Positions 3,546 through 60,935 are shown, counted from the first letter of the stretch. The stretch is 64,000 nt of DNA from Squalus acanthias (GCA_030390025.1 CM059432.1:74402001-74466000); one strand, 5' to 3'. Numbers and translations: made by a program. The notes: a model not told the origin generated them from the letters alone.

Positions 3546-5860
3546 AGGTGGTGCGAGAACCAACAGGAGGGAAGAACCTACTTGACCTCGTCCTCACTAA
3601 TCTACCTGTCGCTGATGCATCTGTCCATGACAGTATTGGTAGGAGTGACCACCACACAGTCCTTGTGGAGACGGAGTCCCATCTTCACACTGAGGACATC
3701 CTCCATTGTATTGTGTGGCACTACTACCGTGCTAAATGGGATAGATTCAGAACAGATCTAGCAGCTCAAAACTGGCCATGCATGAGGCGCTGTGGTCCTT
3801 TAGCAGCAACAGTATTGTATTCCACCACAATCTGTAACCTCATGGGCCGGCATATTCCTTACTCTACCATTACCATCAAGCCAGGGGACCAACCCTGGTT
3901 CAAAAATGAGGAGTGTAGAATAGCATGCCAGGGGCAGCACCAAGCATACCTAAAAATTAGGTGCCAACCTGGTGAAGCTACAACACAGGACATGCATGCT
4001 AAACAGAACAAATCATAACTCTGCAGTTCTGGAACATCCAGTTGTGAATGGTGGTGGGCAAGTAAACAACTAATGGGGGGAGGAGGCTCCATGAGCATCC
4101 TCATCTCAATGATGGTGGAGCCCAGCACGTGAGTGCAAAAGACAAGCCTGAAGCATTTGCAACCATCGTCAGCCAGAAGTGCCAAGTGGATGATCCATCT
4201 CGGCCTCCTCCTGAGGTCCCCACCAGCACAGAAAGCAGTCTTCAGCCAATTCAATGCACTCCACTTGATATCAAGAAACGGCTGAGCACACTGGATACAG
4301 CAAAGGCTAAAGACCCCGACAACATCCGGCTGTAGTGCTGAAGACTTGTGCTCCAGAACTAGCCGTGCCACTAGCCAAGCTGTTCCATTACAGCTACAAC
4401 ACTGGCATCTACCTCCCAAAGTTGAAAATTGCCTAGGTATGTCCTGTCCACAAAAAGCAGGACAAATCCAATCCGGCCAATTACCGCCCCATCAGTCTAC
4501 TCTCAATCATCAGCAAAGTGATGGAAGTTGTCATCAACAGTGCTATCAAGCGGCACTTATTCACCAATAACCTGATCATCGATGCACAGTTTGGGTTCTG
4601 CAAGGACCACACAGCTCCAGACCACATTGCAGCCTTGGTCCAAACATGGACAAAAGAGGTGAATTCCAGAGGTGAGGTGAAAGTGACTGCCCTTGACATC
4701 AAGGCAGCATTTGACTGAGTGTGGCATCAAGGAACCCTAGTAAAACTGAAGTCAATGGGAATCAGGAGGAAAACTTTCCACTGGCTGGAGTCATACCTAG
4801 CACAAAGGAAGATGGTTGTGGTTGTTGGAGGCCAATCATCACAGCCCCAGGTGTAGGTGTATCACTGCAGGAGTTCCTCAGGGCAGTGACCCAGGCCCAA
4901 CCATCTTCAGCCACTCTATCAATGATCTTCCCTCCATCATAAGGTCAGAAGTGGGGATGTTCGCTGATGATTGCAGTGTTCAGTTGCATTCGCAACTCCT
5001 CAGATAATGAAACCGTCTATGCCTGCATGTAGCAAGACCTGGACAATATTCAGGCTTGAGCTGACAAATGGCAAGTAATATTTGCGCCACACAAGTGCCA
5101 GGCTATGACCATCTCCAATAAGAGAGCGTCTAACCACCTCCCCATGACATTCAATGGCATTTCCATTGTCGAATCCCCCATCATCAACATCCTGGGGGGT
5201 CACCATTGACCAGAAACTTAACTGGACCAGCCACATAAATACTGTGGCTACAGGAGCAAGTCAGAGGCTGGGTATTCTGCGGCAAGTGACTCACTTCCTG
5301 ACTCCCCAAAGCCTTTCCACCATCTACAAGGCACAAGTAATGAGTGTGATGGAATACTCTCCACTTGCCTGGATGAGTGCAGCTCCAACAACACTCAAGA
5401 AGCTTGACACCATCCAAGACAAAGCAGCCCGCTTGATTGGCACCCCATCCACCACCTTAAACATTTACTCCCTCCACCACCGGTGTACCGTGGCTGCAGT
5501 GTGCACCATCTACAAGATGCACAGCAGCAACTTGCCAAGGCTTCTTCAACAGCACCTCCCAAACCCACGACCTCTTCCACCTAGAAGGACAAGGGCAGCA
5601 GACGAATTGGAATGCCACCACCTCCAAGTTCCCTTCCAAGTCACACACCATCCTGACTTGCGAATATATTGCCGTTCCTTCATCATCGCTGGGCCAAAAT
5701 TCTGGAACTTCCTCCCTAACAGCAGTGTGGGAGTACCATCACCACATGGACTACAGCGGTTCAAGAAGGCAGCTCACCACCACCTTCTCGAGGGCAATTA
5801 GGGATCGGCAATAAATGCTGGCCTTGCCAGCGACGCTCACATCCTGTGAATGCATAAAAA
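3546..5860 (+). mobile_element. Family B LINE (CR1/L2 group), 5'-truncated, degenerate EN-RT ORF with short 3' UTR
   Basis: REPTGGKNLLDLVLTN...SDHH (end of APE domain), ALDIKAAFD, GVPQGS, MFADD, C-terminus FKKAAHHHLLEGN*; 3' end GCAATAAATGCTGGCCTTGCCAGC...A-rich tail. Confidence 0.92.
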
Positions 5861-9959: not shown

Positions 9960-11823
9960 TTACTTTTCACCCTTGTGCAATCCCTTCGTGCCTGTTGTTA
10001 CTGTGCCTTTTCGTACTGTAGTGCTCCTACGAAGTGTTGACCCAAATGGCTGCAGCACGACTGGTGGAAGGCTGCTGAGTGTCCGTGCAGGAGACTTCAG
10101 ATAGCCTTGCAGGATGCTCTCGACCAGCTCTGGACCTGGAAGGCACGGCTGTAGACTGCACCTCCTCACCATAGATGGCAGCAGTCTGGGATGGCTGGAT
10201 GACAGGCAGCGACAAGGGCATTGGCGGAGTGGCAGTGGTGAAAGCAGGAATGCTGTCATCCTGAGCAAGGACAGCAGGTTCCTGCTCCACTGACCCACTG
10301 CCACTTCCTCGGGGCAGCACCTCAGCATCCCTGGCAATCTGTTGGAGCACAGATTGCTGACCTGCTGCAACACCGTGAAAGCCCTGGTCAATGGTGGTAG
10401 ACCCAGTCACGATGGCAGCTGTCAGAGCTTGCGTGGCATCAAGCTGAGACTGCATGATAGCAGTCTGAAATTGGATGCCTCCAAGCATAGACTGCATTAC
10501 AGCACTATGATGTTGCTTCGCTTCCGCCTGTGTTGCAATGGAAGCTGCCAGATCGCCCATCACATGCGGCATCAGGTCTGGGTCACCACGGTCTCTCTGG
10601 AGACTGGAAATGATGGGCTCCATGGTGTGCACAGAGCCTTGTGCAATGTTGGAGGCGGACTCCTCCATGCTCCTTACCATTGCCGAGAGGCTCTCAGGCA
10701 CCCTTGCCATTGGACCTATCATCTCCGTGTGCATGCCCATTACCCTTCTTCTAAACGCCTTCCCATCAAGGGCCTCATCTGAGTCCTGTGCAGCAGAACT
10801 CGTTCTCGAACTTGCCCTCCGGGGAGATGGCCCCTGAGCCTTGCTGCAGCCCACTCATCCCTGGTGCATCACTCTGTGCAGATCCCGCTACTATACTAGC
10901 CTCTAAAGAACGCGTAGTGCCAGTATCTGAGCTGGTGCCTGCAGGTGAGACATGCTGTGATGTGGTGTGTTCTTCCTCTTCTCCCGCCTCGCTCTCAATG
11001 GTGCCCTCAGGGACAGGCTGCTCAGGTGCTTGCTGATTATCTGAAAGCATAAAGGCACAAGAGTCTAGTTAAAGTGAAGGGAAGGGGGCAGGAAGGGAGA
11101 AATGCATGCATACAGCATGATTAGCTGGAAAGTGCAAAACGCTTGTGGGGTGAGGGGGAAGTGGGATGTGAGAAGAAGGAGTAGGGATGAACATACTGTT
11201 GTTGTCCCCAAGGGGGTCAACGTCGCCAGTGGCCATGTCGCCCACCACCTGGCGCCCAATAATGTGCAGCACTCGAGTCTCTAGCTCAGGCAGTGGTTGT
11301 GTCAGCTTGTCCCCCGCCTGTGCGCTCCTGCTCCCTCCTGTTGTGTGCCACCTTGGCCTGCAGGAGAAAGGAAAGTGTGTAAGTGTGGAGCAATGTGTTT
11401 GGGTGATGCGCCTGCCATAGTTGAATAGCTATCATTGTATGCAAGGTGTGAGATGTGGGTGTGAGTGTCGGTAGGTAGAGATTGTTGGTGGGTGAGTGCT
11501 GGGGTTGTGGTGCTTTGGGCAGTGTGTGAAGATTGTGATACAGATGGTGGTATGCAGCATTTGTTGAAGCCTTCACTCACCCTGACCACCTGAGTGAGGT
11601 CGTTAAATTTCTTCCTGCACTGTGTGTGGGTCCTGGGGACCACAGTGCTGCCCGAGACGTGCTGCACTATCTCCCTCCACATGGTGTGGAAGACTTGTGG
11701 CGAGGGCCTCCTGCCACTTGCCGGGTAGAGCACCGCCCTCTGTCTCTCCACAGCGAAAACCAATGCCTCCAATGCTTCATCGGAGAATCTGCAGGCTCTC
11801 TCCCTGGGGCGTGAACCTGCCAT
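9960..11823 (-). pseudogene. Harbinger Myb/SANT-like DNA-binding protein, 3 exons (11823-11581, 11357-11197, 11040-~9960), frameshifted
   Basis: RFSDEALEALV...WREI...QCRKKFNDL; GT-AG introns; exon 2 AKVAHNRREQERTGGG. Confidence 0.85.
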
Positions 11824-12369
11824 GAGCACACCTGGTTCAGTCCTTTGGCACCTTGCATTTGCGCCTGGCGCTAATTCTCCAACTTTTCTACTGACACTGC
11901 CCATTCCTTGGCTATAACGAATTTCTAGCCCTGTGTACCTTAGTGAGGATTCTTCAATCTAATTGGTTGAAGAGACACGCTGTTGCTTGTCCTGCTCACA
12001 TATGCCACAGATCCCCTGTAGAGGGCACAGCGCTGAAAGAGATCTCTAGTAACTGTAAGTTGCCACTCAAAAGGCCACGAAAAGTCTGTGGGCAGCTGTA
12101 AGCATAATGAACGGTGAGTGCCATTCCTTCGCCACTAACCGCAGGACTTTGTCCGCCCCAGAAATTGTCTGAGGAGGTGGGATCTGCTGGGATGAGATAA
12201 CCTGTTGGATTTCCCATGACTCTTGCTCAGCGATCTGGACTCCAACAAAATACCAGTGTCGAGGACCATGGTGGAGCGGAAGTAAGGCCCACAGGGGTCT
12301 CCAGGCTGGGGTCATGACCTGGAAGACCAAGAATTGAGCCGTGAATTTGTATTACATTAGCCCTCTTGT

Positions 12370-16922: not shown

Positions 16923-17451
16923 GGGCTGGATTTTCATAGGGCCGTGGAGGCGGGTTTGGAGGCGTGTGGGGGTTAAAATAGCGAAAAGTGGCGGGCGGAC
17001 CTGATCCCGACTCCATTCCGCCTCCACGCAATTTTGATAAAATCGTTTGCGGTGTTCCCGACTCCGTCCCGCCTCCAAGAGGTGGGAGAGGCCATTAAAG
17101 CCCTTAACAAGCCCTAAATTAGCTCTGTAATGCCATTTTGAAACTTTTTAGCTAGTTTAACCCTTTTCCCACGTGAAGCACGCCTGTTCTGAAACACGAC
17201 GGTGAAACCTGGCGGGAGCACAAGTGGATTGCTGACTCTAAGCTGCAGCTCAACCTTTAAATAGGAGATTTGATCAGCCATCAATTGCAGGTGGCAGGAC
17301 TTTGTTGTCACAGGTCTGGGGGAACTTTTAGAAGGCATAACCACAGCTCTGGAAGTTTGGAGCCTGACACCCATCTCCAGTGTGACCTCCTGGGAAACCC
17401 CTCTCGCCACCCTCATTGAGCGCTTCCTCAACTGAGACATATACCAGAGGC

Positions 17452-18705
17452 ATGGGAGCCATTTATTTCTTTCCCTCCTGGGCATCCGATGAGGATGAAC
17501 AACAGCCACGGCACCAGCAGAACCATGAACAACAGCAGCACCAACAGCAGCAGCAACAGCAGGAACGCCAAGCTGCTGCTCACCCGCCTGAAGCTGCACA
17601 GGCCAGAAGGTGCCAGCGCATGGAAGGCCGTCGGCACAGGAGATACCCCCCAAACAGGGTCTACAGACAGAGGATCAGCTACCTCAACATGTCTGAGCAG
17701 CAGTGCCAAAGGCGGCTCCGACTTTCGCGAGAGGTAGTGGGTGACATCTGCGCAATGCTGCAACAAGACCTGGAGCCCAGAGGACCAGGTGGACACCCCT
17801 TACCAGTGGCCGTCAAAGCCACCACCGCACTAAACTTTTTTGCCTCAGGCTCATTCCAGGGATCAGCAGCAGACATCAGCGGCATCTCCCAGGCGGCCGC
17901 ACACACCTGCATCACGCAGGTAACCGATGCCCTCTTTGCCATCGCGCACAATCACATCCATTTCACCAAGGATCAAGCAAGTGTCACGGCGCGTGCGGTT
18001 GGATTAGCTAATCTGGCAGGCTTTCCAAGGGTGCAGGGCGTCGTTGACTGCACACATGTGGCCCTTAAGGCACTCCATCGCAATCCAGGTATTTTTGTCA
18101 ACCGCAAGGGCTTCCACTCCCTCAACGTTCAGCTGGTGTGTGACCACAAGAAGGAAGTTCTGCATGCTTGTGCCAAGTACCCTGGCAGTTGCCATGACTC
18201 CTTCATACTGCACCAGTCTAGTGTGCCTCCGCTATTCAGTCCACCAGACTAACTTCACGGATGGCTACTTGAAGACAAGGGCTATCCCCTGAAGACGTGT
18301 CTAATGACGCCGTTGAGGAGCCCATCCAACGCAGCTGAGGAGAGCTACAATTCCAGCCACATTTCCACCAGAGCCATAATCGAGCAAACCATTGGTATGC
18401 CGAAGATGCGCTTCAGATGCCTGGATAGATCAGGTGGAGCCCTGCAATACTCAGCAGCCAGGGTCTCCAGAATCGTCGTGGTTTGCTGTGTACTTCACAA
18501 CATGGCACAGCGTCGTGGCTTACAGATGCCGGAGGACCAAGTGGCTCCTCACATAGCCTCCTCAGATGAGGAGGAGGAGGAGGAGGAGGAGGAGGAGAGA
18601 GAGAACGAACAACTTGCAGAGGCCCCTCAACCAGCGGCAGCATTACGCGAGACCATAGCTGCCCGGAATGCAAGGAACGCACTCATCTTGGCCAGATTTG
18701 CTTAG
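17452..18705 (+). pseudogene. Harbinger (HARBI1-like, DDE_Tnp_4) transposase with one premature stop
   Basis: ORFs 17416-18252 and 18304-18705 are in the same frame, separated by TAA at 18250-18252; motifs FFASGSFQ, VVDCTH, NRKGFHSLNVQLVCD, PGSCHDSFI, EDKGYP, IEQTIG, CCVLHN. Confidence 0.93.
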
Positions 18706-18962
18706 CCTAGACAAGCAAGCACTTTTGCCTCGCAGCTTCTTACCAGAGCTACGACAATGGCCCAGACCCAACGGATCCCTAACAATGTGACCACCATACT
18801 GACAATTGCAAGTTATCATAAGGCCTCATTGTGGAAGTCCCATTAGCGAAATGACAGATGCCACAACTGCAGCTGTAGCCATCAGAGTTTTTATTTACAC
18901 TTTACACCTGATGGCTTTTTCACATTAAACATCAAAATTCACCCAAGTGACTACCCTTGTGA

Positions 18963-20928
18963 CTATTTGTGCAGTTTCTTTCTCTTACGCGTGCTCCTAC
19001 GTGGTGCTTCCCCTGTGGCTTCAGCAGAAGTGGAGGCCCCCTGCTCAGTTTGTTGCTGCTCCTGTCTCGACACCTTTGGTGGGCGTCCTCTGGGGTTGCG
19101 AACCTGCGAGGGCTCAGCAACAGTCTGCTGCTCCTGCGGCTGGGCAGGGGTTGAGACGCCGATCTCAGTTGGGTGCGGACTCTGGTGGGGCTCTGACTGA
19201 GGACTTGTCAGTGGCATGGAAGTGTGAGCGCTTGGAGAGGAGCCCCCACCTCCTTGTTGTCTGCCACCAACATCCCTCTCATGGGTCAGGTCCACCTCAG
19301 CGCTTGCAAGTGGATTGAGAGCACCTTGCTGCACATCAGGGGGGCCATGGGGACCCGTATCTGCACTGGAAGTCCTACTCAGAAGGACTTCCATGAAGGT
19401 CTGGTTTCTCTGTTCAATAGATGACCATCGCTCCTCAAGAGATGCCAGTCTATTCTGAACAATGACCATGTTTTCTACACTCTGGCGACTTATCTCCTCC
19501 ATAGCCATAGCCATCCTCTCCTCTACTGTAGCCATCCTTTCCACGGAGGTTGCCATCCTTTCCGTGGTGATGCGTTCATGTGCCAATGACTCCACAAAGG
19601 CTCTGCTCATGTTCGCTATGGACTCCTCCATTCGCTCCACACTTGCAGCGACCCTGGAGACAAAACCTGTCAGAGACTCCTGCATCTGTTCCTGGAGTCC
19701 CAGCACTGCTGATCTTATGGATGGACCCAGAGGCAGAGGGTCGACATGCAGCTGAGCCGAGCTAGGAGAGTCCTGCGCCCTCCGACTAGGACTCTCCACT
19801 GTTGTCCCTGTCTCCACCATCTGCTGATGCTCACTTGTGAGCTGTGATACACCAGGTGACAACACTATTCTATGTCCCGAGGGTCCCACCGAGGTGTAAG
19901 TGTCTGCGCTGGTGCTGGGTGCACTGAGTTCTGCTGATGCTGCACCCTCAGAGGTTGCAGCTTCCTCTGAGGAGTCTGGCTGCTCAGGCTCTTCCTCCTG
20001 GCTAGTGGGGACGGGTGCTTGCGATGGTCCTGTGGGGGAGTAAAGGAAAGAGTCAGAGATGTGATGCCAAGGTTACATGCACATTGCATATTGCAAATGA
20101 TCATAAATCCATCTGTTAGAGCTTCAGATTCATTATCAGCGACTCATGCAATGTCAATGAGAGAGATGGAACACTATTCTGTCACCAGCTTGCTGTGATG
20201 CACCTGTCTGTCCGTCCCCCACTTGCGTATCCTCCTCTACTCCCACGATCTCCAGGACCGCATCCTCCCAGGGGGTGAGCTGGGCTAATGAGGGTAGCCC
20301 TCCTCCTGTCCTGGCTCTTTCCCTTTTATTGTGAGCTCTGTTTTCCTGCAATGAGGGAGACAAGTGGAGTTTGAGTGAGATTGAAGGAGTGAGTGTAGAG
20401 AATCCATAGCATAGATGCTTAGAAGGAGACAAAGATGGATTGAGGTGGTGAGACTAAGGGCCCTCCCTGTGTGTTGTAAGTTGTTTTCAAAGCATGACAG
20501 TGATAGGTAGTGTGAGGGCTGCATAGTCAAATAGTAAGATGAATGTGACCATAGAGGGAGAGGGAATGGGTAAGGGTGCATGGATGTCAGTGTCAAGTGG
20601 GATATGGAGGAAGAGGTTGCTAAAGCTGAGTGCTGGTGAGGAGAGGCAATGGGGATCAGATTGAGCGTGAAGGGAAAGTCATACTTACTTTAGCAGTACG
20701 TAGAAGGTCATGAAACCTCTTCCTGCACTGGATCCAGGTTCTGCAGGTGAATGATAAGGAGTTGACCTCCTGGGCGACCTGGACCCACACAGCCTTGGTC
20801 TGCTGGGGAGGCTTCTTCCTCCCTGAGGAGGGGAAGAGCACCTCTCTGTTGGCTCTTGCTCCATCCACCAAAGCTTGCAGGGCAACGTCATCGAACCTGG
20901 GAGCAGACCTGGGTCATTGGCTGGCCAT
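18963..20928 (-). pseudogene. Harbinger Myb/SANT-like protein, 3 exons (20928-20689, 20345-20186, 20029-18963), one premature stop
   Basis: MASQ*PRSAPRFDDVALQALVDG...WVQVAQEVN...WIQCRKRFHDL; GT-AG splicing (phases 0 and 1) joins in frame to ORF 18963-19889; basic C-terminus RRSTRKRKKLHK. Confidence 0.9.
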
Positions 20929-24529: not shown

Positions 24530-27423
24530 GTACCGGCAGACAGGAAGATGGCTTGAAGTGTGTCTACTTCAATGCAAGGAGCATCCGGAATAAGGTAGGA
24601 GAACTTGGAGCGTGGATTGGTACTTGGGACTACGATGTGGTGGCCATTACGGAGACATGGTTAGAACAGGGACAGGAATGGTTGTTGGAAGTTCCGGGGT
24701 ATAGATGTTTCAGTAAGAGTAGGGAAGTTGGTAAGAAAGGTGGAGGAGTAGCATTGTTAATCAAGGATAGTTTAACAGCAGCAGAAAGGCAGTTCGAGGG
24801 GGATCTGCCGTCTGAGGTAATATGGGCTGAAGTTAGAAATAGGAAAGGAGCGGTCACGTTGTTAGGAGTTTTCTACAGGCCCCCAAATAGTAATAAAGAT
24901 GTGGAGGAAGAAATTGCAAAGCAGATTATGAATAGGTGTGGAGGTCACAGAGTAGTTGTCATGGGTGACTTCAACTTTCCAAATATTGATTGGAACCTTT
25001 ATAGGTCAAACAGTTCGGATGGGATAGTTTTTGCACAGTGTGTGCAGGAGGGTTTCCTGACACAATATGTGGATAGGCCGACAAGAGGTGGGGCCACGTT
25101 GGATTTGGTACTGGGTAATGAACCGGGCCAAGTGTTTGATTTGTATGTGGGAGAGCACTTTGGAGATAGTGACCACAATTCGGTAACTTTCACTATTGCA
25201 ATGGAGAGGGATAGGGCCATACGGCAGGGCAGGGTTTATAATTGGGGGAGGGGTAATTATGATGCGATTAGGCAAGAATTAGGGAGTATAAGATGGGAAC
25301 AGAAACTATCAGGGAAAGGCACAAACGAAAAGTGGAGCTTTTTCATGGAGCAATTACTGCGTGTCCTTGATAGGTATGTCCCTGTCAGGCAGGGAGGAAA
25401 TGGCCGAGTGAGAGAACCATGGTTCACAAAAGAGGTTGAATGTCTAGTCAAGAGGAAAAAGGAAGCGTATGTAAGGATGAGAAAACAAGGTTCAGTTGGG
25501 TCGATTGAGGGGTACAAGGTAGCAAGGAATGAGCTAAAAAAAGAGCTTAGGAGAGCTAGGAGGGGGCATGAGAAGTCCTTGGCGGGTCGGATCAAGAAAA
25601 ACCCCAAGGCTTTTTACTCTTATGTGAGAAATAAAAGAATGACCAGGGTGAGGGTAGGGCCGGTCAAGGACAGTAGTGGGAACTTGTGCATGGAGTCAGA
25701 AGAGATAGGAGAGGTGATGAATGAATACTTTTCGTCAGTGTTCACCGAGGAGAGGGCCATGTTCTTGAGGATGAGAGTGTGATAAAGGTGGATAGGCTGG
25801 AGGTGGTAGATGTTCTGAGGGAAGATGTTTTAGCAATTTTGAAGAACCTGAGGGTCGATAAGTCCCCTGGGCCAGATGGGATATATCCTAGGATTCTTTG
25901 GGAGGCAAGGGAGGAGATTGCAGAGCCTCTGGCTTTGATCTTTGGGTCCTCACTGTCCACGGGGATGGTACCAGAGGACTGGAGAGTGGCGAATGTTGTT
26001 CCTCTCTTCAAGAAAGGAAATAGGAATGACCCTGGTAATTATAGGCCGGTTAGTCTTACTTCGGTGGTTGGTAAGATAATGGAAAAGGTCCTGAGGGATA
26101 GGATTTATGACCATTTGGAAAGGGGCAACTTAATCAGGGATAGTCAACACGGATTCGTGAAGGGTAAGTCTTGCCTAACAAATTTGATTGAATTCTTTGA
26201 GGAGGTAACTAAGTGTGTAGATGAAGGTAGAGCAGTTGATGTCGTATACATGGATTTTAGTAAGGCGTTTGATAAGGTTCCCCATGGTCGTCTCATGAAG
26301 AAAGTAAGGAGTTGTGGGATAGAGGGAAATTTGGCCGATTGGATAAGTAACTGGCTATCTCATAGAAGGCAGAGGGTGGTGGTGGATGGAACATTTTCGG
26401 ACTGGAGACCAGTTACCAGCGGTGTGCCACAGGGGTCGGTGCTGGGTCCTCTGCTGTTTGTGATTTTTATCAATGACTTGGAGGAGGGGACTGAAGGGTG
26501 GATCAGTAAATTTGCTGATGACACCAAGATTGGTGGAGTAGTGGATGAGGTGGAGGGCAGTTGTAGGCTGCAAAGAGACATTGATAGGATGCAGAGCTGG
26601 GCCGAAAAATGGCAGATGGAATTTAACCCTGATAAGTGCGAGGTGATTCATTTTGGTAGGGCAAATTTGAATAAGGATTACAGGGTCAACGGCAGGGTTC
26701 TGAGGAACGTGGAGGAGCAGAGGGATCTGGGGGTTCATATCCACAGATCTCTGAAGGTTGCCACTCAAGTGGATAGAGCAGTAAAGAAGGCCTATGGTGT
26801 GTTGGCGTTTATTAACAGAGGGTTTGAGTTTAAGAACCGTGAGGTTATGCTGCAACTGTACAGGACCTTGGTGAGACCACATTTGGAATATTGTGTGCAG
26901 TTCTGGTCACCTCACTATAGGAAGGACGTGGAAGCATTGGAAAGAGTGCAAAGGAGATTTACCAGGATGCTGCCTGGTTTGGGGGGGAGGTCTTATGAGG
27001 AAAGATTGAGGGAGTTGGGGCTTTTCTCTTTAGAGCGGAGGAGGATGAGAGGCGACTTAATAGAGGTTTATAAGATGATGAGGGGGATAGATAGAGTGGA
27101 TGTTCAGAGACTATTTCCTCGGGTAGAGGCAGCTGTTACAAGGGGGCATAACTATAAGGTGCATGGGGGGAGATATAGAAGGGATGTCCGAGGTAGATTC
27201 TTTACTCAGAGAGTGGTTGGGGTGTGGAATGGACTGCCTGCTGTGATAGTGGAGTCGGACACTTTAGGAACTTTCAAGCGGTTATTGGATAAGCACATGG
27301 AGCACACCAGAGTGATAGGGAGTGTGATAGCTTGATCTTGGTCTCGGACAATGCTCAGCACAACATCGAGGGCTGAAGGGCCTGTACTGTGCTGTACTGT
27401 TCTATGTTCTATGTTCTATGCTA
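24530..27423 (+). mobile_element. Young CR1 LINE with complete ORF2 region, truncated just upstream of ORF2
   Basis: APE + RT ORFs, 3' UTR and (CTATGTT)n tail at ~27400-27423. Confidence 0.96.
24553..27335 (+). pseudogene. CR1 ORF2 (APE endonuclease + reverse transcriptase) with a single frameshift near 25760
   Basis: YFNARSIRNK, ITETWL, YRPP, GDFN, SDHN (409-aa ORF); KSPGPDG, YMDFSKAFD, GVPQGSVLGP, FADD (518-aa ORF). Confidence 0.95.
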
Positions 27424-34879: not shown

Positions 34880-35478
34880 GGGAATTGTAGAAGGGTATGC
34901 CAGGAGTAGCACCAGGCAGACCTTAGAATGAGGCACCAAGCTAGTGAAACTAAAATACAGAGCTTCTTGCATGCTCAACACAAAAAGCAGAAAGCTATAG
35001 CCAGAGCTAAGCAGTCCCACAACCAATGGATCGGAGCAAAGCTCTATAGCCTTACCAATCCAGTTGAGAATAGCGGTGTACAATCAAACAATTAAGGGGA
35101 GTAGGAGACTCCATGGACATCCCGATCCTCAATTATATGCGCAGGCCAGTATGTGAGTGCAAGAGACAAGGCTGTAGTGTTTGCAAACTTCTTTAGCTAA
35201 AATGTGTCAAGCAGACAATCCCACTTGGCCTCCTCCCACTATCGTAGAGTGTAGAGAATCCAGCCAATTCAGTTCACTCCACGAGGCATTAAGAAGTGGC
35301 TAGGTGCGCTGGACACAGCAAAGGCTATGGGCCCTGACAACATCCAGACTACAGTGTTGAAGATCTGTGTAGCAGGACTAACTGGCACCTTAAGCTATTT
35401 CAGTGCAGCTATGACACTGGTATCTACCTGACAATGTGGAAGATTGCTCTATCCACAAAAAAAAGAACACACCTAAGC
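34880..35478 (+). mobile_element. Older family B LINE, left part (continues at ~41450-42165)
   Basis: Collinear with ~3930-4460 of the 3546-5860 copy. Confidence 0.8.
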
Positions 35479-38400
35479 CTTTTTTTTATATACGTTCCTG
35501 GGATGTGGGCGTCGCTGGCAAGGCCAGCATTTATTGCCCATCCCTAATTGCCCTCGAGAAGATGGTGGTGAGCTGCCTTCTTGAACCGCTGCAGTCCATG
35601 TGGTGAAGGTATTCCCACAGTGCTGTTAGGGAGGGAGTTCCAGTATTATGACCCAGCGACGATGAAGGATTGGCGATATACTTCCAAGTCAGGATGGTGT
35701 GTAACTTGGAAGGGAACTTGGAGGTGGTGGTGTTCCCATGCTCCTGCTGCCCTTGTCCTTCTCGGTGAAAGAGGTCACAGGTTTGGGAAATGCTGCCGAA
35801 GAAGCCTTGGCGAGTTGCTGCTGTACATCTTGTAGATGGTACACACTGCAGCCACGGTACGCTGGTGGTGGAGGGAGTGAATGTTTAAGGTGGTGGATGG
35901 GGTGAAATCAAGTGAACTGCTTTGTCCTGGATGTTGTCGAGCTTCTTCAGTGTTGTTGGAGCTGCACTCATCCAGGCAAGTGGAGAGTATTCCATCACAC
36001 CCCTGACTTGTGCCTTGTAGATGGTGGAAATGCTTTGGGGAGACACTCGCCGCAGAATACCCAGCCTCTGACCTGCTCTTTTGGCCACTTTATTTATGTG
36101 GCTGGTCCAGTTAAGTTTCTGGTCAATGGTGACCCCCAGGATGTTGATGGTGGGAGATTCGACGATGGTATTGCTATTGAATGTCAAGGGGCGGTGGTTA
36201 GAGTCTCACTTGTTGGAGATAGTCATTGCCTGGCACTTGTGTGGCGTGAATGTTACTTGCCGGTTATCAGCCCAAGCCTGAATGTTGTCCAGGTCTCGCT
36301 GCATACGGGCATGGGCTGCTTCATTATCTGAGGAGTTGCAAATGGAACTGAACACTATCATCATTAGTGAACATCCCCACTTCTGACCTTATGATGGATG
36401 GAAGGTAATTGATGAAGCAGCTGAAGATGGTTGGGCCTAAGACACTGCCCTGAGGAACTCCTGCAATGATGTCCTGGGACTGAGATGATTGACCTCCAAC
36501 AACCACAACCATCTTCCTTTGTGCTAGGTATGATCCAGCCAGTGGAGAGTTTACCCCCTGATTCCCATTGACTTTAATTTTACTGGAGCTCCTTGATGCC
36601 ACACTCGGTCAAATGCAGCCTTGATGTCAAAGGCAGTCACTCTCGCCTCACCTGTGGAATTCAACTCTTTTGGACCAAGGCTGTAATGAGGTCTGGAGCT
36701 GAGTGGTTTTGGTGAGTAAGTGCCACTTGATAGCACTGTCGATGACACCTTCCATCACTTTGCTGATGATTGAGAGTAGACTGATGGGGCGGTAATTGGC
36801 CGGATTGGATTTGTCCTGCTTTTTGTGAACAGGACATACCTGGGCAATTTTCCACATTGTCGGGTAGATGCCAGTGTTGTAGCTGTACTGGAATAGCTTG
36901 GCTAGAGGCGCAGCTAGTTCTGGAGCACAAGTCTTCAGCACGACAGCCGGGATGTTGTCGGGCCCAAAGCCAGTGTGCTCAGCTGTTTCTTGATATCACA
37001 CGGAGTGAATCGAATTGGCTGAAGACTGGCTTCTGTGATGGTGGAGACCTCAGGAGGAGGCCGATATGGACCATCCACTTGGCACTTCTGGCTGAAGATG
37101 GTTGCAAAAGCTTCAGGCTTGTCTTTTGCACTCATGTGCTGGACTCCGCTATCATTGTGAATGGGATATTCATGGAGCCTACTCCTCCCGTTAGTTGTTT
37201 AATTGTCCACCACAATTCACAACTGGATGTGGCAGAACTGCAGAGCTTTGATCTGATCCATTGATTGTGCAATCACTTAGCTCTGTCTATAGCACGCTGC
37301 TTCTGCTGTTTAGCATGCATGTAGTCCTGTGTTGCATCTTCACCAGGTTGGCACCTCATTTTTAGGTACCCCTGGTGCTGCTCCTGCTTCTGCACTCATC
37401 ATTGAACCAGGGTTGGTCCCCTGGCTTGATGGTAATAGTAGAGTGAGGGCACAGAATGTACTCTGATATGCCGGGCTATGAGGTTGTAGATTGTGGTGGA
37501 ATACAATTCTGCTGCTGCTGATGGCCCACAGTGCCTCATGGATGCCCAGTTTTGAGCTGCTAGATCTGTTCTGAATTTATCCTATTTAGCACGGTGGTAG
37601 TGCCACACAACACGATGGACGGTGTCCTCAGTGTGAATACAGGACTTCGTCTCCACAAGGACTATGTGGTGGTCACTCCTACCAATGCTGTCATGGACAG
37701 ATGCATCTGCGACAGGTAGATTGGTGAGGGCGAGTTGAAGTAGGTTTTTCCCTCATGTTGGTTCTCTCACCACCTGCCGTAGGCCTAGTCTGGCAGCTAT
37801 GTCCTTCAGGACTTGGCCAGCTCGGTCAGTCGTGGTGTTACCAAGCCACTCTTGGTGATGGACATTGAAGTCCCCCACCCAGAGTACATTCTGTGCCCTT
37901 GCTACCCTCAGTGCTTCTTCCAAGTGGTGTTCAACATGGAGGAGTACTGATTCATCAGCTGAGGGAGGGCGGTAGGTGGTAATCAGCAGGAGGTTTCCTT
38001 GCCCATGCTTGACCTGATGCCATGAGACTTCATGGGGTCCGGAGTCAATGTTGAGGACTCCCAGGGCCACTCCCTCCCGACTATATACCACTGTGCCACC
38101 ACCTCTGGTGGGTCTGTCCTGCCGGTGGGACAAGACATACCCAGGGATGGTGATGGAGGAGTCTGGGACATTGGCTGAATGGTATGATTCCGTGAGTATG
38201 ACTATGTCATAGTCACAGACTAGTCTGTGGGATAGCTCTCCCAATTTTGGCAGAAGTCCACAGATGTTAGTGAGGAGGACTTTGCAAGGTTGTCATGTCC
38301 AAAGCCGGTGCCGAGTCGATGCCGGGAGTTCCATCCAGTTTTACTCTTATTATTGCTTTTTGTAGTGGTTTGTTACAACTGAGTGACTTGCTAGGCCATT

Positions 38401-39133
38401 TTAGAGGGCAGTTAAGAGTCAACCACATTGAATCATAGAAATCATAGAAAGTTACAGCACGGAAGGAGTCCATTTCGGCCCATCGTGTCTGCGCCGGCCA
38501 ACAAAGAGCTATGCAGCCTGATCCCACTTCCCAGCTCCAGGTCCATAGCCCTGCAGATTACAGCATCCCAAGTGCGCATCCAAGTACTTTTTAAATGTGG
38601 TTAGGGTTTCTGCCTCTACCACCCTTTCAGGCAGTGAGTTCCAGACCCCCACAATCCTCTGGGTGAAGAAATTTCCCCTCAAATCCCCTCTAAACCTTCC
38701 ACCAATTACTTTAAATCTGTGCCCCCTGGTTTTTGACCCCTCTGCTAAGGGAAATAGGTCCTTTCTATCCACTTTATCTAGGCCCCTCATAATTTTATAC
38801 ACCTCAATAAGGTCTCCCCTCAGCCTCCTCTGTTCCAAGGAAAACAAACCCAGCCTATCCAGTCTTTCCTCATAGCTAAGATTCTCTACTCCCGGCAACA
38901 TCCTTGTAAATCTTCTCTGTACCCTCTCTAGTGCAATCACATCTTTCCTGTAATGTGGTGACCAGAACTGCACGCAGTACTCTAGCTGAGGCCTAACTAG
39001 TGTTTTATACAGTTGAAGCATAACCCCCCTGCTCTTGTATTCTATGATGCGGAGATGCCGGTGTTGGACTGGGGTGGACAAAAATGAGAAGTCGCACAAC
39101 ACCAGGTTATAGTCCAACAGTTTTATTTAAAAT

Positions 39134-39168
39134 TACGAGCTTTTGGAGCTCCGCTCCTTCTTCAGGTA
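39134..39168 (-). ncRNA. Second hammerhead copy with the core GAAA changed to AAAA
   Basis: Reverse complement reads TACCTGAAGAAGGAGCGGAGCTCCAAAAGCTCGTA. Confidence 0.7.
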
Positions 39169-39395
39169 CAGGTACAGTGAGGGAATACAAATCGATTACA
39201 CAGTATATATATATACAGAGAACAACGTGTCTGCAGAGATACAATCTGTTAGGGAGGCATTACATCAAAGACACATCAGAGTACAGCTAAGACAATGAGG
39301 TGAGTCACAGGGGGTCCAACGTGTCAAATGCTGCCGTCTGCAGTTAAGCTTTTAACTTTTTTTTTAAAACTGGAAAAACAGACAACGATGTCGAG

Positions 39396-39945
39396 TCACG
39401 TTCTGTAGCATGACATGAACCCGAGATCCCTGTTGAGGCCGTCCTCATGAGTGCGGAACTTGGCTATCAGTTTCTGCTCGATGATTTTGCGTTGTCGTGT
39501 GTCTCGAAGGCCGCCTTGGAGAACGCTAACCCGCAGATCTGAGGCTGAATTTCCTTGACTGCTGAAGTGTTCCCCGACTGGGAGGTAACAATCCTGCCTG
39601 GCGATTGTTGCGCGGTGTCCGTTCATACATTGTCTCAGTGTCTGCATGGTCTCGCCGATGTACCATGCCGCGGTGCATTCTTTCCTGCAACGTATGAGGT
39701 AGACAACATTGGCCGAGTCACATGAGTATGTACCATGTACCTGGTGGGTAGTGTCCTCACGTGTGATGATGGTATCTGTGTTGATGATCTGGCATGTCTT
39801 GCAGAGGTTGCCATGGCAGGGTTGTGTGGTGTCGTGGTCGCTGTTCTCCTGACAGCTGGGTAATTTGCTGCGAACGATGGTACTTTTGAGGTTAGGCGGC
39901 TGCTTGAAGGCGAGTAGTGGAGGCGTGGGGATGGCCTTAGCAGGG
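39396..39945 (-). pseudogene. Penelope GIY-YIG endonuclease C-terminal fragment with Cys-rich linker
   Basis: PCHGNLCKTC...YSCDSANVVYLIRC...WYIGET...HR...VGEHF...GLNRD. Confidence 0.9.
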
Positions 39946-40345
39946 AACACTTCAGCAGTCAAGGACGTTCAGCCTCGGATCTGCGGGTTAGCGTTCTCCA
40001 AGGCGGCCTTCGAGACACACGACAACGCAAAATCATCGAGCAGAAACTGATAGCCAAGTTCCGCACCCATGAGGACGGCCTCAACAGGGATCTCGGGTTC
40101 ATGTCACGCTATAGAACGTGACTCGACATCGTTGTCTGTTTTTCCAGTTTAAAAAAAAAGTTAAAAGCTTAACTGCAGACGGCAGCACTTGACACGTTGG
40201 ACCCCCTGTGACCCACCTCATTGTCTTAGCTGTACTCTGATGTGTCTTTGATGTAATGCCTCCCTAACAGATTGTATCTCTGCAGACACATTGTTCTCTG
40301 TATATATATACTGTGTAATCGATTTGTATTCCCTCACTGTACCTG

Positions 40346-40380
40346 TACCTGAAGAAGGAGCGGAGCTCCGAAAGCTCGTA
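40346..40380 (+). ncRNA. Minimal type I hammerhead ribozyme in the Penelope pseudo-LTR
   Basis: TAC-CTGAAGA-A-GGAGC-GGA-GCTCC-GAAA-GC-TC-GTA: conserved cores, stem II, palindromic AGCT stem III, short stem I. Confidence 0.8.
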
Positions 40381-41295
40381 ATTTTAAATAAAACTGTTGG
40401 ACTATAACCTGGTGTTGTGCAACTTCTCATTCTTGTATTCTATGCCACGGCTAATAAAGGCAAGCATTCCGTATGCCTTCTTAACCACCTTATCTACCTG
40501 GCCTGCTACCTTCAGGGATCTGTGGACATGCACTCCAAGGTCCCTTTGTTCCTCTACACTACTCAGTGTCCTACCATTTAATGTGTATTCCCTTTCCTGT
40601 TAGCCCTCCCCAAATGCATTACCTCACACTTCTCCGGATTGAATTCCATTTGGCACTGTTCTGCCCATCTGACCAATTTATTGATATCATCCTGCAGTCT
40701 ACAGCTTCCTTCTTCAGTATCAACCACACAGCCGATTTTAGTATCATCTGCAAACTTCTTAATCATACCCCCTATATTCAAGTCTAGATCATTGATATAT
40801 ACCACAAAAAACAAGGGACCTAATACTGAGCCCTGCGGAACCCCACTGGAAACAGCCTTCCAGTCACAAAAACACCCATCAACCATTACCCTCTGCTTCC
40901 TTCCTCCGAGCCAGTTTTGAATCCAACTTGACACTTTGCCCTGGATCCCATGGGATTTTAACTTCATGACCAGTCTGCCATGTGGAACCTTATCAAAAGC
41001 CTTGCTAAAGTCCATATACACTACATCAAACACACTACCCTCATCTACCCTCCTTGTTCCCTCCTCAAAAAATTCAATCAAGTTTGTCAGACACGACCTT
41101 CCCTTAACAAATGCTGTGTGTCTCGAGTCCAAACCAGGTAAGGATGGCAGATTTTGTTTCCTAAAGGACGTTAGTGACCAGATGGGTTTTTACGACAATC
41201 TGATAATTTCATGACCACCATTACTGTTACTAGCTTTTTATTCCAAATTTTTAAAATTTTATTTAAGTGAATTTAAATTCCCCAGCTGCTGTGGT

Positions 41296-41447
41296 GGGAT
41301 TTGAACTCACATCTCTGGATCATTAGTCCAGGCCTATGGATTACTAATACAAAAGCAAAATACTGCGGATGCTGGAAATCTGAAATAAAAACAGAAAATG
41401 CTGGAAATGCTGGATTACTAGTCCAGTAACATAACCACTATGCTACC
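41296..41447 (-). promoter_or_regulatory. tRNA-derived type 2 Pol III internal promoter (A box and B box)
   Basis: A box TAGCATAGTGG (41445-41435); B box GAGTTCAAATCCC (41308-41296); spacing ~52 nt once the 41347-41410 insert and one TSD copy are removed. Confidence 0.8.
41347..41410. mobile_element. 64-bp insertion, probably the terminus of a second Penelope family
   Basis: 10-bp TSD TGGATTACTA (41337-41346 / 41411-41420); AAAAGCAAAATACTGCGGATGCTGGAAATCTG recalled as a shark Penelope terminal motif. Confidence 0.6.
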
Positions 41448-41449
41448 TT

Positions 41450-42165
41450 TCCTAATCATCAACAATATGATGGAAGGAGTTATCAATAGTACCTTCAAGC
41501 AACACCTACTCACCAAAAACATGCTCACTAATGCTCAACGTGTGCTCTCAGAAAACCATGCATCTCAAAACCTAGTCATAGCCTTGATCGAGACATGGAC
41601 GTAAGAGCTGAATTCTAAAGGAAAGGTGAGAGCAACTGCCCTTGACATCAAGGCAGCATTCAACTGAGTATGGCACCACGGATCCCTAGCAAGACTGAGG
41701 TCAGTGATTGTCAAGCAAAATCTCTCCAGTGGCTAGTCATACCCAGTAAGATGGTAGTGGTTGTTGAAGGGCAATCACTGCAACCTCAGGATATAACTGC
41801 TGGAGATTCTCAGGAATTGTCTTTAGCCCAACAATCTTTAGCTGCTTCGTTAATGACCTTTTCTCCATAATAAGTTCGGAAGTGGGGCTGTTTGCTGATG
41901 ATTCTGCAGTGTTCAGCTACATTCACAACTCCTCCAGTAATGAAGCAGCCCATGCCAGCCTACAGCAGGACTTGGGCAGTATTCAGATGAGCTAACAAGT
42001 GGCGGGTAAAATTTGCATTACATCAGTGCCCAGTAATGACCATCTCCAACAAGAAAAGGCCCAGCACCTACCCCTGACCTTTAATGGCACCATCGTCACC
42101 TGAGTTCCCCATCATCAACATCTTGGGGGTCACCACTGACCAGAAGCTTAATTGGACCAGCCAGT
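41450..42165 (+). mobile_element. Older family B LINE, right part
   Basis: Collinear with ~4500-5235 (ALDIKAAF, LFADD, ILGVTTDQKLNWT). Confidence 0.8.
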
Positions 42166-45455: not shown

Positions 45456-47200
45456 ACTGAGCTTGAGAAACAATAGGAGTCAGTGTATAGCAGAAGAAAG
45501 GGTTCCTGGGTTGTATATCTCAGGAGGCTGTCGACTTACAGATAAAGAGGAATATTGGGGCAGAGGAAGCAAATTCTGATACCATCACTGGGAAGACAAG
45601 GGGAATGGAGGACTCAGATGGTGGTGATGCAGGAAACTCCATGGCCTAGTGATTGGATATGGCCACAAAACGGGCGGTGTCATGGCCCAACGATGTTAAG
45701 CTGCACCAGGTCAAAATGGTTTTGGTAGCACACAAAATTCGTGCTCAATCCTCAATAACATGATTATTGTCTTGATCTCAGCACTAAAACCGCTGCTCAT
45801 TGGCTTACTGCTCAACAGGTGGGCCAACATCGGGCCCAGTCTAATTCCCAGTTATGTTTGGCACAGGCTTTATTCAGTACTTAAAGGGGAGGTGCAGTGA
45901 TGCTACAGCACCTCATTGTCAATCCAGTTCCAACTTCACCTGGAAGAAGATGGCAGTGCCTCAGCACAGGGAGAGAGCCCGCAGATTCTCAGACGGGCCA
46001 CTTGAGGCACTGGTGGTGGCCGTGGAGAGGAGGCGGGCTGGAAGCCCTCGCCACATACATCTCAAAGGCTTTGGCAGGTGATAACTGTCTATGTGACGGC
46101 CAGCACTGTGGTCCCCAGGTCGGCGATCCAGTGCCGCAAGATGTTTAGTGACCTCACACGGCAGGTCAAGGTGAGTGAAGGCTTAAGCAAATGCCATATC
46201 CCACCATCTGCACCACAAGTCTCACACACTACACCCCCATCACTCACCTACCAATCTCTACCTCACAATCATAGCTTCACTTCACCCTCACAACCTTACC
46301 ACTGCTGCAACACTCACACCCACATCTCACACCTTGCACACACTGACAGCTTTTAAATATGGCAGGTACATGGCTCAGACAGATTGCACCACACACACAC
46401 TTCCCTTTCTCTTGCAGGCCAAGGTTGCGCATAACAGGAGGGAGCAGTGGCAGACAGGCAGGGGGCAGGCTGCCATCCAGGACCTCAGCCATCTGGAGAA
46501 GCGAGTGCTGGAGATCATTGGGCGACAGATCATACAGGCCATGGCAACTGGCAAGGTTGAAGCCCTTGGGGACAACAACGGTCTGCTCATTCCTAATCCT
46601 TCATCTCACATCCCACTTCCTCCTCATCCCACAATCTCTTCTCACTTTCAAGCTGCTGATGTTGTATGCTTGGATATCTTGCTTCCCCCCACCATTCGCT
46701 CACTGTACTCCGAGTCTTGTGCCTTTCTGCTTATCAAGACCAAGCACCTGAGCAGCTTGTCCCTGAGGCGATGCAGGAGAGGAAGAAGAAGAAGACACCG
46801 CATCTGTCACTCGCAGACACCAGCTCAGAAACTGGCACTACGCCTACTTTAGAGGCAAGTTTAGAAGTGGGATCTGCACAGGGTGAGGCACCGGGTATGA
46901 GTGGGCTGCAGCAAGGCCAGGGGGAAAGGGTAGCTTGGGGGCCAGCTGCCTGGAGGGTGAGTTCGCGGATGAGGACCTCGATGGGGCGGCCTTCAGAAGA
47001 AGGGTGATGGACATGCACACCGAATTGCTAGGTACAGTACAATGGCAAGCCTGCCAGAGAGACTTTCGGCAATGTGAAGGAGCATGGAGGAGTCCGCCTC
47101 CAACATTATTGGGGCTTTGTGCAGAGCTTGGATTTCACAGAATCACAGAATCCCACAATGCAGATAGAGGCCATTTCGGCCCATCGAGCCTGCACCGACA

Positions 47201-52100: not shown

Positions 52101-52618
52101 TTTTTTTTCATTCATTCATGCGATGTGGGCGTCACTGGCAAGGCCAGCATTTATTGCCATCCCTAATTGCCCTTGAGAAGGTGGTGGTGAGCCGCATTCT
52201 TGAACCGCTGCAGTCCGTGTGGTGAAGGTACTCCCACAGTGCTGTTAGGGAGGGAGTTCCAGGATTTTGACCCAGCGACGATGAAGGAATGGCGATATAT
52301 TTCCAAGTCAGGATGGTGTGTGACTTGGAGGGGAACTTGGAGGTGATGGTGTTCCCATGTGCCTGCTGCCCTTGTCCTTCTAGGTGGTAGAGGTCGCGGG
52401 TTTGGGAGGTGCTGTCGAAGAAGCCTTGGCGAGTTGCTGCAGTGCATCTTGTAGATGATACACACTGCAGCCACGGTACGCCGGTGGTGGAGGGAGTGAA
52501 TTTTCAAGGTGGTGGATGGGGTGCCAATCAAGTGGGCTGCTTTGTCCTGGATGGTGTCGAGCTTCTTGAGTGTTGTTGGAGCTGCACTCATCTCAGCAAG
52601 TGGAGAGTATTCCATCAC
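52101..52618 (-). mobile_element. Family B LINE 3' fragment
   Basis: MEYSPLA...FKNAAHHHLLKGN*, 3' UTR, poly(A). Confidence 0.92.
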
Positions 52619-59879: not shown

Positions 59880-60935
59880 CCGATATAGGGTAACCCTGTG
59901 GATGTTGGCTATTTGGACTTCCAGAAGACATTTGATAAGGTTTCACACAAGAAATTATTAGCGAAAATGAAAGCGCATGGAATTGGAGGTAACCTTGTGA
60001 CATGGGTTAATAATTGGTTGAGAGGTAGGAGACTGAGTGTAGGGATAAAAGGAATTTTCTCTGATTGGCAGGATGTGACAAGTGGTGTTCCCAAGAGATC
60101 TGTACTGGGGCCTCAGCTTTTCACCTTATATATTAATGACTTGGATGAAGGAATAGATTTGTATATTCAAGTTTGCAGATGACACTAAGTTAAGAGGCAC
60201 AGTATGTTGTGTAGATGGGAGCAGGAAGTTACAAAGGGATATAGATAGACTGTAAATGTGCAAAAAAAGTTATTGGAATTTTTTTTTTATTTGTTCATGG
60301 GATGTGGGCATCACTGGCAAGGCCAGCATTTATTGCCCAATCCTTAGTTGCCTTTGAGAAGGTGGTGGTGAACCGCCTTCTTGAACTGCTGCAGTCCATA
60401 TGGTGAAGGTACTCCCACAGTGCTGTTAGGGAGGGAGTTCCAGGATTTTGACCCAGCGACAATGAAGGAACACCGATATACTTCCAAGTCAGGATGGTGT
60501 GTGACTTGGAGGTGGTGGTGTTCCAATGCGCCTGCTGCCCTTGTCCTTCTAGGTGGTAGAGGTCACGGGTTTGGGAGGTGCTGTCGAAGTAGCCTTGGTG
60601 AGTTGCTGCAGTGCATCTTGTAGATGGTACACACTGCAGCCACGGTATGCCGGTGGTGGAGGGAGTGAATGTTTAAGGTAGTGGATGGGGTGCCAATCAA
60701 GTGGGCTGCTTTGTCTTGGATGGAATGTTGGCCTTTATCTCAAGGGGTTGGAATACAAGGATGAAGTAATGCTTCAGTTGTACAGAGCCTTGGTCAGACC
60801 CTATCTGAAGTATTGCATTCAATTTTGGGCACCGATCCTCAGGAAATATATATTGGCTTTGGCGAGGGTACAGCGCAGATTCATCAGAATGATACCCGGT
60901 TTAAAGGGCTAGATTATGAGGATAGGTTGCATAAA
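59880..60935 (+). mobile_element. CR1 RT fragment interrupted by family B
   Basis: YLDFQKTFD, GVPKRSVLGP, then LYRALVRPYLKYC after 60722. Confidence 0.85.
60278..60722 (-). mobile_element. Family B LINE 3' fragment
   Basis: SWNSLPNSTVGVPSP...HHHLLKGN*, poly(A). Confidence 0.9.

Follow-up and report, generated by a model that had tools for sequence, protein, structure and literature searches.

LINEs and SINEs are kept apart by a working rule, LINEs being made as messages by Pol II and SINEs, as Pol III products, being unable to code for protein; this is how the available text of PMC5786205 and PMC2666806 presents them, and in the former SINEs are said not to encode protein. Pol III transcripts retrotranspose in human cells with ORF2p alone, as reported in the accessible part of PMC2666806. 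The Deu-SINEs SacSINE1 and LmeSINE1 of sharks and coelacanth are described, in the portions available, as a tRNA-like head, a conserved central block and a LINE-type tail of about 400-460 bp together (PMC5499810, PMC4824008, PMC3747384). Where conserved SINE bodies such as Deu came from and what they do is posed as an open question in the consulted parts of PMC4824008 and PMC5786205. In the literature searched, no tRNA-headed or Pol III-made autonomous LINE was found; subscription journals, Repbase and Dfam lay outside the scope of that search, and could contain a headed consensus that has gone unnoticed. The LINE family presented here, family B, is represented by several pieces in a window of 64,000 nucleotides from Squalus acanthias (GCA_030390025.1 CM059432.1:74402001-74466000), the whole stretch of DNA that was analysed. 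Family B is a real, unusual element and, judged by its sequence, may be a protein-coding element made by Pol III.

The family B pieces and the insertion that splits one of them lie in the window as follows (T4+, a run of four or more T).

3546..5860, plus strand: 5'-truncated, decayed copy with end of APE domain, RT domain, C-terminal part, stop, AATAAA and short A-tail; no T4+
5799-5801, plus strand: stop codon of this copy
5810-5815, plus strand: AATAAA of this copy
41130..41452, minus strand: 5' end of the second copy, tRNA-derived head (Rfam tRNA model) and 5' part of the Deu-like block
41445-41435, minus strand: A box of the second copy
41308-41297, minus strand: B box of the second copy
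41347..41410, minus strand: T-rich insertion in this head with four T4+ runs, between copies of a 10-bp word
38431..41125, minus strand: CR1 insertion, foreign to family B, splitting head from body of the second copy and itself containing the 39045-40436 element
38373..38430, minus strand: 3' part of the Deu-like block with helix arm, local hairpin and in-frame TAA
38413-38405, minus strand: 5' arm of a predicted long-range helix
38375-38373, minus strand: in-frame TAA before the ORF
35544..38372, minus strand: single APE+RT frame, disrupted here, of 973 codons in the consensus; one T4 at 37109
35480..35592, minus strand: 3' end of the second copy with helix arms, stop TAG, AATAAA, terminal stem-loop, T and A-tail
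35592-35583 and 35555-35544, minus strand: arms complementary to the ORF start region
35535-35530, minus strand: AATAAA of the second copy
52101..52618, minus strand: 3' fragment; no T4+
60278..60722, minus strand: 3' fragment; no T4+
34885..35470, plus strand: old fragment, 75% to consensus; no T4+
41454..42163, plus strand: old fragment, 76% to consensus; one T4

The copy at 3546-5860 has 92% identity to the first family B consensus, a majority-rule sequence of 31 copies. The consensus was rebuilt from 142 copies (336,397 bases); each place entered once, and three old fragments as well as two head-only loci were set aside. The head of the second copy holds a duplicated anticodon-like arm and scores 25.3 and 22.1 bits with the Rfam tRNA model, both under the gathering score; ARAGORN called no tRNA in the window and one of five family B heads, as tRNA-Ile. 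The local hairpin in 38373-38430 contains an in-frame two-codon uORF, and the 3' end at 35480-35592 is common to the ORF-less SINE forms described below. The insertions in the second copy are nested, with the 39045-40436 element inside the CR1 and the CR1 inside the 5' UTR of family B. The innermost element consists of ~490-bp direct repeats (97% alike) flanking a 190-codon frame with no Pfam match, and presumably resembles a Penelope-type GIY-YIG piece. At four further loci (L170, L258, L259, L387) 5'-truncated family B copies adjoin a CR1 3' tail in the same orientation, comparable to the junction at 38431; either CR1 inserts into family B or family B into CR1 tails. The window also holds a Harbinger-type transposon at 17386-20072 with a DDE_Tnp_4 transposase on the plus strand and a convergent partner frame on the minus strand, further pieces at 10027-11958, 46187-46852 and 53294-53815, a Myb/SANT-like frame being found in another copy, and a perfect 88-bp palindrome (50311-50398) within an L2-like copy.

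The consensus measures 3.3 kb. From 5' to 3' it has a tRNA-derived head with its A box at 9-19 and its B box near 72-83, then a Deu-like block, a single open 973-codon frame, AATAAA, a stem-loop and a terminal A-tail. SacSINE1 and Deu are used here as names for family B sequences on the ground of layout, which is our assumption. Pfam Exo_endo_phos and RVT_1 score above cut-off on one copy (L004), with APE and RT in one frame. By this frame, its truncated copies and its fixed 3' end family B has the make-up of an abundant autonomous APE-type LINE. All 30 head-selected loci, which are the best matches to the LINE-type head and not a census, share a common 5' start, and 28 of them continue past the Deu block into the coding part; since the two bases preceding the start are AC in 11 of the 30 (L031-L060), the true transcript may begin 1-2 nt earlier. 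Longer fetches span head to tail in 16 of 20 cases, and 12 of these 16 copies have no T4. Of 146 body-selected loci 30 ran to the locus edge, leaving 116 copies with room upstream; the head is reached by 26 of them, 14 break off in the 5' UTR and the other 76 within the ORF. Among the 14 ending in the 5' UTR no alternative common 5' sequence was found, and the sequences shared upstream of body-selected copies are solely tails of other repeats, mostly CR1. The 28-nt Deu-ORF junction has 1366 exact matches, the A and B boxes are intact in 46 heads, and subfamily changes avoid the box consensus positions. The tRNA head is a fixed part of family B.

Individual copies show 94-97% identity to their own subfamily consensus, and the longest open frame among 60 loci inspected has 544 codons. 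Of the 16 head-to-tail copies, L238 and L242 have clear target-site duplications, of 13 and 7 bp, L231 has a doubtful one, and in the remaining 13 none could be discerned. A single small contig carries two headed copies (L034 and L045, G000:C1615) that both end at consensus position 391 with similar flanks and are probably a segmental duplication of one cut copy. All 30 bins of a full-length copy are covered by contigs of four other organisms with identical deletion joints, which speaks to presence only, and homologous pieces occur in proteins of Heptranchias perlo (86%) and Heterodontus francisci (70%), which suggests a cartilaginous fish as the source of the window. In-frame family B pieces were also seen in NCBI gene models of two sharks (P0243 and P0231; proteasome assembly chaperone 2 isoform X2 and FERM domain protein 7-like), by either exonisation or annotation error.

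The ORF of family B is under purifying selection. Shared changes comprise 55 of 2052 possible synonymous and 39 of 6535 possible non-synonymous ones (CpG transitions left out), a ratio of about 0.22, and this excess of shared synonymous changes indicates that the copied lineages needed the protein. The protein belongs to a clade of single-ORF invertebrate elements (FastTree support 0.81, 72 rows), in which it groups with P0001 and P0002 at 0.90. Its RT has 34-35% identity to the CR1s of the window, from which it is separated as a distinct branch outside the CR1 clade in a 149-row tree, and 24% to the L2-like copy. The invertebrate APE+RT elements (P0001-P0068, L061, L285, L286), one cluster of which includes Penaeus vannamei proteins, have like family B 930-980 aa, no ORF1 and a basic N-terminal extension. 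The family B consensus leaves no room for an ORF1; the invertebrate relatives lack one too, a point against the Pol III reading. Nothing in PDB matched by sequence at E<=1e-5, scans of viral contigs yielded no relatives that could be used, and searches for an older headed sister family with the old fragments and L364 returned ordinary family B copies, so that none could be built. Whole animal-type LINEs (L285-L341) were found as contigs of GTDB species representatives (symbiont and other MAGs), more than 15 of them in one MAG; these are host contamination.

The initial annotation held that the sense strand of the copy at 3546-5860 has many TTT and several A-runs but avoids TTTT, and a direct count gives 0 T4+ runs beside 9 TTT and 11 A4+ runs at 21.5% T. 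The count likewise reproduces a single T4 in 35480-38430 (minus strand, at 37109), none in 52101-52618, 60278-60722 and 34880-35478, one in 41450-42165 (at 41859) and "many" in a neighbouring CR1 (24553-27335, 12 sense T4+ runs). The T4 at 37109 had been taken as copy-specific; it is absent from every consensus, but a T4 is present at the same site in 7 of 110 covering copies, in both subfamily groups. The 5' piece at 41130-41447 had been credited with one T4 and actually carries five T4+ runs, four of which fall in the ~63-bp T-rich insertion (41347-41410) that is bounded by the two copies of the 10-bp word and absent from the family B consensus. As a control the neighbouring CR1s are a poor match, having 24-26% T and different codon use. 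For the copy at 3546-5860, 3.7 T4 are expected by mononucleotide shuffle (P=0.026), 2.5 by a first-order (P=0.053) and 0.8 by a second-order Markov model (P=0.46), and the shortage in this single copy is marginal.

The consensus from 142 copies contains no T4+ in its 3.3 kb, nor does any of the six subfamily consensuses. Order-0, -1 and -2 nulls give P=0.018, 0.21 and 0.62 for this absence; in the ORF, synonymous codon shuffling expects 1.9 T4 (P=0.11), and a codon model of third-position composition gives P=0.012. The scarcity is largely explained by the low T content (19%) and few Phe codons of the consensus, Phe making up 18 of 973 codons (1.8%), below all 120 homologs (2.1-6.5%). TTTT is truly absent, yet on its own this exceeds chance by only a small margin; in view of the codon shuffle and the Markov nulls the TTTT count was dropped as stand-alone proof. 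The 142 copies carry 48 T4+ runs (0.14/kb) versus 4.5 A4+ runs per kb, 104 of them having no T4+ at all, and the antisense strand of the ORF has 14 T4+. In 52 related metagenome ORFs (at least 450 codons; four rows outside the LINE frame set aside) 5-49 T4 runs were counted, but at 22-37% T. Relatives with low T are mixed, with 4 T4 in 1.3 kb (L130) and 4 in 1.2 kb (L131) and, in five that have 20-27% T and are represented without their 5' ends, 1 in 1.5 kb (L078), 0 in 1.5 kb (L114), 1 in 2.6 kb (L285), 1 in 1.4 kb (L333) and 0 in 1.1 kb (L327), so that TTTT alone does not decide.

According to the accessible part of Orioli et al. (2011, PMC3141230), human Pol III partly terminates at T3VT, TVT3 and T2VT2 and not at isolated T3, and a T4 is given in the available text of PMC5725217 as stopping 75% of Pol III transcripts. 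The terminator class used here comprises T4+ and these non-canonical motifs. By this measure the consensus ORF contains 1 site versus 5.7 expected by codon shuffle (P=0.004), and the whole 3.3 kb holds one terminator-like site, a weak T2CT2. The ratio of observed to expected is 0.18, versus 0.79-1.19 in 81 other ORFs of at least 536 codons (79 related and 2 window CR1s); unlike family B, the single-ORF LINEs of invertebrates have a normal terminator load. L285, the only relative that lies in the clade and is also matched in composition, has a single TTTT and 8 terminator-class sites versus 9.5 expected, in a sequence that lacks its 5' end. In family B the AT-rich 5' UTR has 0 sites versus 2.8 expected (P=0.03), and the two long copies in the window have 4 each versus 11.6 and 14.1. 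For 5-mers with four or more T the count is 1 versus 9.5 expected (P=0.005), while isolated TT (44 versus 43.7) and isolated TTT (5 versus 6.9) are near expectation, pyrimidine tracts number 9 versus 5.1, and the codon-shuffle test of the ORF found no depletion of A, C or G clusters. The deficit of family B is confined to T clusters, in agreement with the published rule as far as the consulted part goes (PMC3141230). After insertion, synonymous changes making T3 have a private rate of 0.019, the same as other changes to T; T-runs thus arise at the ordinary rate, and host mutation bias is not the cause.

Several features of these data restrict how the deficit is to be read. The z-score of family B (-2.46) is not the most extreme of 82 ORFs (L128 -2.59, L090 -2.58), and three T-rich ORFs reach similar z-scores with far smaller deficits. 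A second-order Markov null gives P=0.07 for the terminator class, the motif class was fixed after a first look showing T3NT=0, and several statistics were tried; the 828-nt Harbinger-type ORF in the window has 0 terminator-like sites too (P=0.037). In an underpowered lineage test, 0 of 59 synonymous T3+-making changes are shared (about 1.6 expected) versus 14 of 529 other changes to T, and the subfamilies, differing at 25-87 sites, are not independent trials for T avoidance. The wider terminator class supports the read-through idea as stronger evidence than the TTTT count. Of the selection for Pol III read-through proposed at the outset there stand a depleted terminator class and a head that is a fixed part of the element, but TTTT itself is largely a matter of low T and few Phe.

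None of nine AUGs upstream of or around the ORF start opens the ORF; the frame begins after an in-frame stop, and its first in-frame Met is residue 287. For the invertebrate single-ORF LINEs the frame is taken to open at a Met that lies shortly ahead of the APE domain, whereas family B has no such Met, the Met of the nearest homologs being aligned to about its residue 10. Residue 11 of the N-terminal extension aligns with residue 2 of the nearest homolog P0001, and shared deletions in the extension measure 3, 3 and 12 nt, which makes the extension coding and places initiation within the first ten codons. There, ACG at codon 4 would be the best near-cognate start candidate. Cap-dependent scanning cannot easily reach the ORF start, whichever polymerase makes the RNA. 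Of 50 copies, 33 have an ATG ahead of the APE domain and 16 have ATA there; this ATG was rejected as start because it lies in the wrong frame. The Rfam search for an IRES fold in family B gave no match at E<=10 and the 5' UTR fold has z=-0.97; an IGR-type IRES was discarded, as neither an Rfam match nor a three-pseudoknot fold was found. Pairing of the A box with the first codons has a probability near 1 in one fold and was set aside given this z-score and its rank of 13 among windows. The hairpin that ends the Deu-like block (consensus 303-322, window 38375-38400, minus strand) has a 7-nt loop shaped like an anticodon loop, the centre of which is complementary to ORF codon 3 with 3-4 bp of predicted pairing.

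Among 965 windows, the strongest predicted partner of the 66 nt around the ORF start is the final 60 nt of the ORF, at -20.5 kcal/mol versus a window mean of -6.0 (sd 3.5), and the two helices recur in the predicted fold of the whole RNA; no covariation supporting these helices was found, and one common variant breaks a pair. ORF-less forms are represented by 177 exact matches to one junction pattern and by about half of 30 loci chosen on a tail variant. In the younger ones the deletion joint falls within the outer helix; in many of the older ones, which retain the first four and last dozen codons, it falls within the inner helix. Junctions vary by several bases. This pattern favours an origin of the ORF-less SINEs by repeated deletion from the headed LINE, descent presumably having run in that direction. 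Among the hallmarks of SINE2 elements, a tRNA-derived head with A and B boxes is present in family B, and a short, non-coding body is found only in the deletion forms. At the other end, 89 of 97 LINE 3' ends have an A-tail, directly before which stand 0 to 9 T (one T in 41 ends, four or more in 11); in 4 further ends of the 97 T9-T11 is followed by a shorter A-run of two or three A. The T-run sits 45 nt downstream of AATAAA. Since T-runs beside A-tails also arise passively, as stated in the available text of PMC8466645, this layout is only suggestive of a T+ SINE end.

We propose, with a probability of about 0.62, that in family B an autonomous LINE relies on Pol III for its transcription and needs neither cap nor AUG for its translation. 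From the anatomy, TFIIIC would bind the internal A and B boxes and Pol III would start at or just before the fixed first base. It could then read 3.3 kb since the sense strand has been cleared of T4 and degenerate T-cluster terminators, a depletion that was measured and that read-through would explain. Termination may take place in the T-run of variable length next to the tail, or in the DNA that flanks the element, and the AATAAA 45 nt upstream might direct polyadenylation as in T+ SINEs. Translation of the uncapped RNA would begin internally at a non-AUG codon, one of the first ten that follow the Deu-like block, and the APE+RT protein, observed to be under selection, would copy its own RNA in cis by target-primed reverse transcription without ORF1. 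ORF start and end would pair, and deletion across the helices may have given the ORF-less SINEs of the observed junctions more than once. Transcription by Pol III and a translation of this kind together explain why the element has a head and a fixed start, why T clusters are scarce, why no start codon opens the ORF and why SINEs form easily. Anatomy, counts, ORF selection and junctions are observations, whereas we infer the polymerase, the start codon, the RNA structure and the direction of descent.

A rather unlikely alternative is that the LINE is a Pol II element which took over a SINE for its 5' UTR; the head would be a passenger or a Pol II internal promoter, and the lack of T-runs a product of a T-poor, Phe-poor clade composition and chance. 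LINEs are held to be Pol II transcripts in the consulted part of PMC5786205, and type 3 Pol III promoters can recruit Pol II, which the available text of PMC6023835 does not show for the tRNA type. The composition of close relatives also fits, with low Phe (2.1-2.6%) in eleven or so of the 120 homologs, 20% T and one T4 in L285, and no T4 in L114 and L327; T4 alone has P=0.11. However, the deficit survives codon shuffling, is confined to T clusters and is not seen in L285, the AT-rich 5' UTR is likewise free of terminator sites, and A and B boxes are retained across subfamilies. A capped RNA would be easier to translate, but the cap is no cure here, given nine uAUGs ahead of an AUG-less ORF.

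Less probable still is a division of labour, in which Pol III makes the RNA that is copied and the protein comes in trans from capped Pol II read-through transcripts of host promoters, no uncapped RNA being translated. Thousands of copies could supply such RNA, Pol III transcripts are as a rule untranslated (PMC2666806, in the part available), and head, fixed start and terminator deficit would be explained without translating Pol III RNA. Yet purifying selection of the strength seen is expected only if the RNA gains from its own protein, and supply in trans should let ORF-less forms take over, whereas 28 of the 30 head-selected loci, best matches and not a census, keep the coding part; the start-codon problem persists as well. 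It is highly improbable that U clusters are avoided for another cause, such as splicing or polyadenylation signals, U-rich decay elements or the target of the element's own endonuclease. TA and TT are both low versus codon shuffles (z -4.0 and -4.3) and the ORF has no AATAAA or ATTTA, but neither motif differs in count from the null, and there is an excess of pyrimidine tracts. If an endonuclease target were the cause, both strands should shun it, whereas the antisense strand has many T4; the head, too, would be left unexplained.

If Pol III transcription and translation hold true, family B is a new kind of element. A natural 3.3 kb Pol III coding RNA would break the LINE/SINE rule and provide a vertebrate model for translation without cap and AUG. 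Family B also bears on the Deu question, since the block is located exactly where the LINE needs a translation start and SINE forms appear to arise by deletion. A further reading, which we regard as tentative and more doubtful than the proposal above, is that the element is LINE and SINE at once: in its uncapped 3.3 kb Pol III RNA, Deu block and paired ORF ends would close into a scaffold on which ribosomes are loaded at a non-AUG codon with the ORF looped out, and shark Deu-SINEs would be this scaffold minus the ORF. In that case the Deu domain would be the ribosome-recruiting element of a LINE, explaining its retention in SINEs across animals.

Known systems share single features with family B. 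R2 elements have an AUG-less ORF translated from uncapped RNA after a structured block, but unlike family B they depend on Pol I and a ribozyme. The Dicistrovirus IGR IRES translates an AUG-less ORF without cap directly after a structured block (PMC10275262, in the part available), as proposed for family B; it has three pseudoknots, the PKI codon-anticodon mimic, L1.1 and SL IV/V motifs, none of which was found in family B. The invertebrate relatives for which DNA was at hand showed no tRNA-like or Deu-like head, ARAGORN being a weak test that detects one of five family B heads. The T+ SINEs B2, Dip and Ves have, like family B, a tRNA head, AATAAA and a variable T-run followed by a short A-tail; by the consulted text of PMC8466645 they are non-coding, below 300 bp and reported solely in mammals, with T elongation partly passive, whereas family B is a coding element of 3.3 kb. 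Bov-A/Bov-tA, RIME, NARTc and SINE2-1_ACar consist of LINE 5' and 3' ends joined by internal deletion, as do the ORF-less forms, and in the available part of PMC5786205 such bipartite derivatives are reported from RTE, Ingi, Vingi and R2 only. In these elements, that text has the tRNA head added after the deletion and the LINE taken as Pol II, whereas in family B the autonomous element itself is headed. The ORF-less forms share layout and size with SacSINE1 and LmeSINE1. Deu-SINEs, however, are by their descriptions non-coding and in need of a separate partner, named in the accessible portions of PMC5499810 and PMC3747384 as L2-2_CM (78.6% tail similarity) or 'CR1-4_DR-like', while head and tail of family B enclose a 973-codon ORF.
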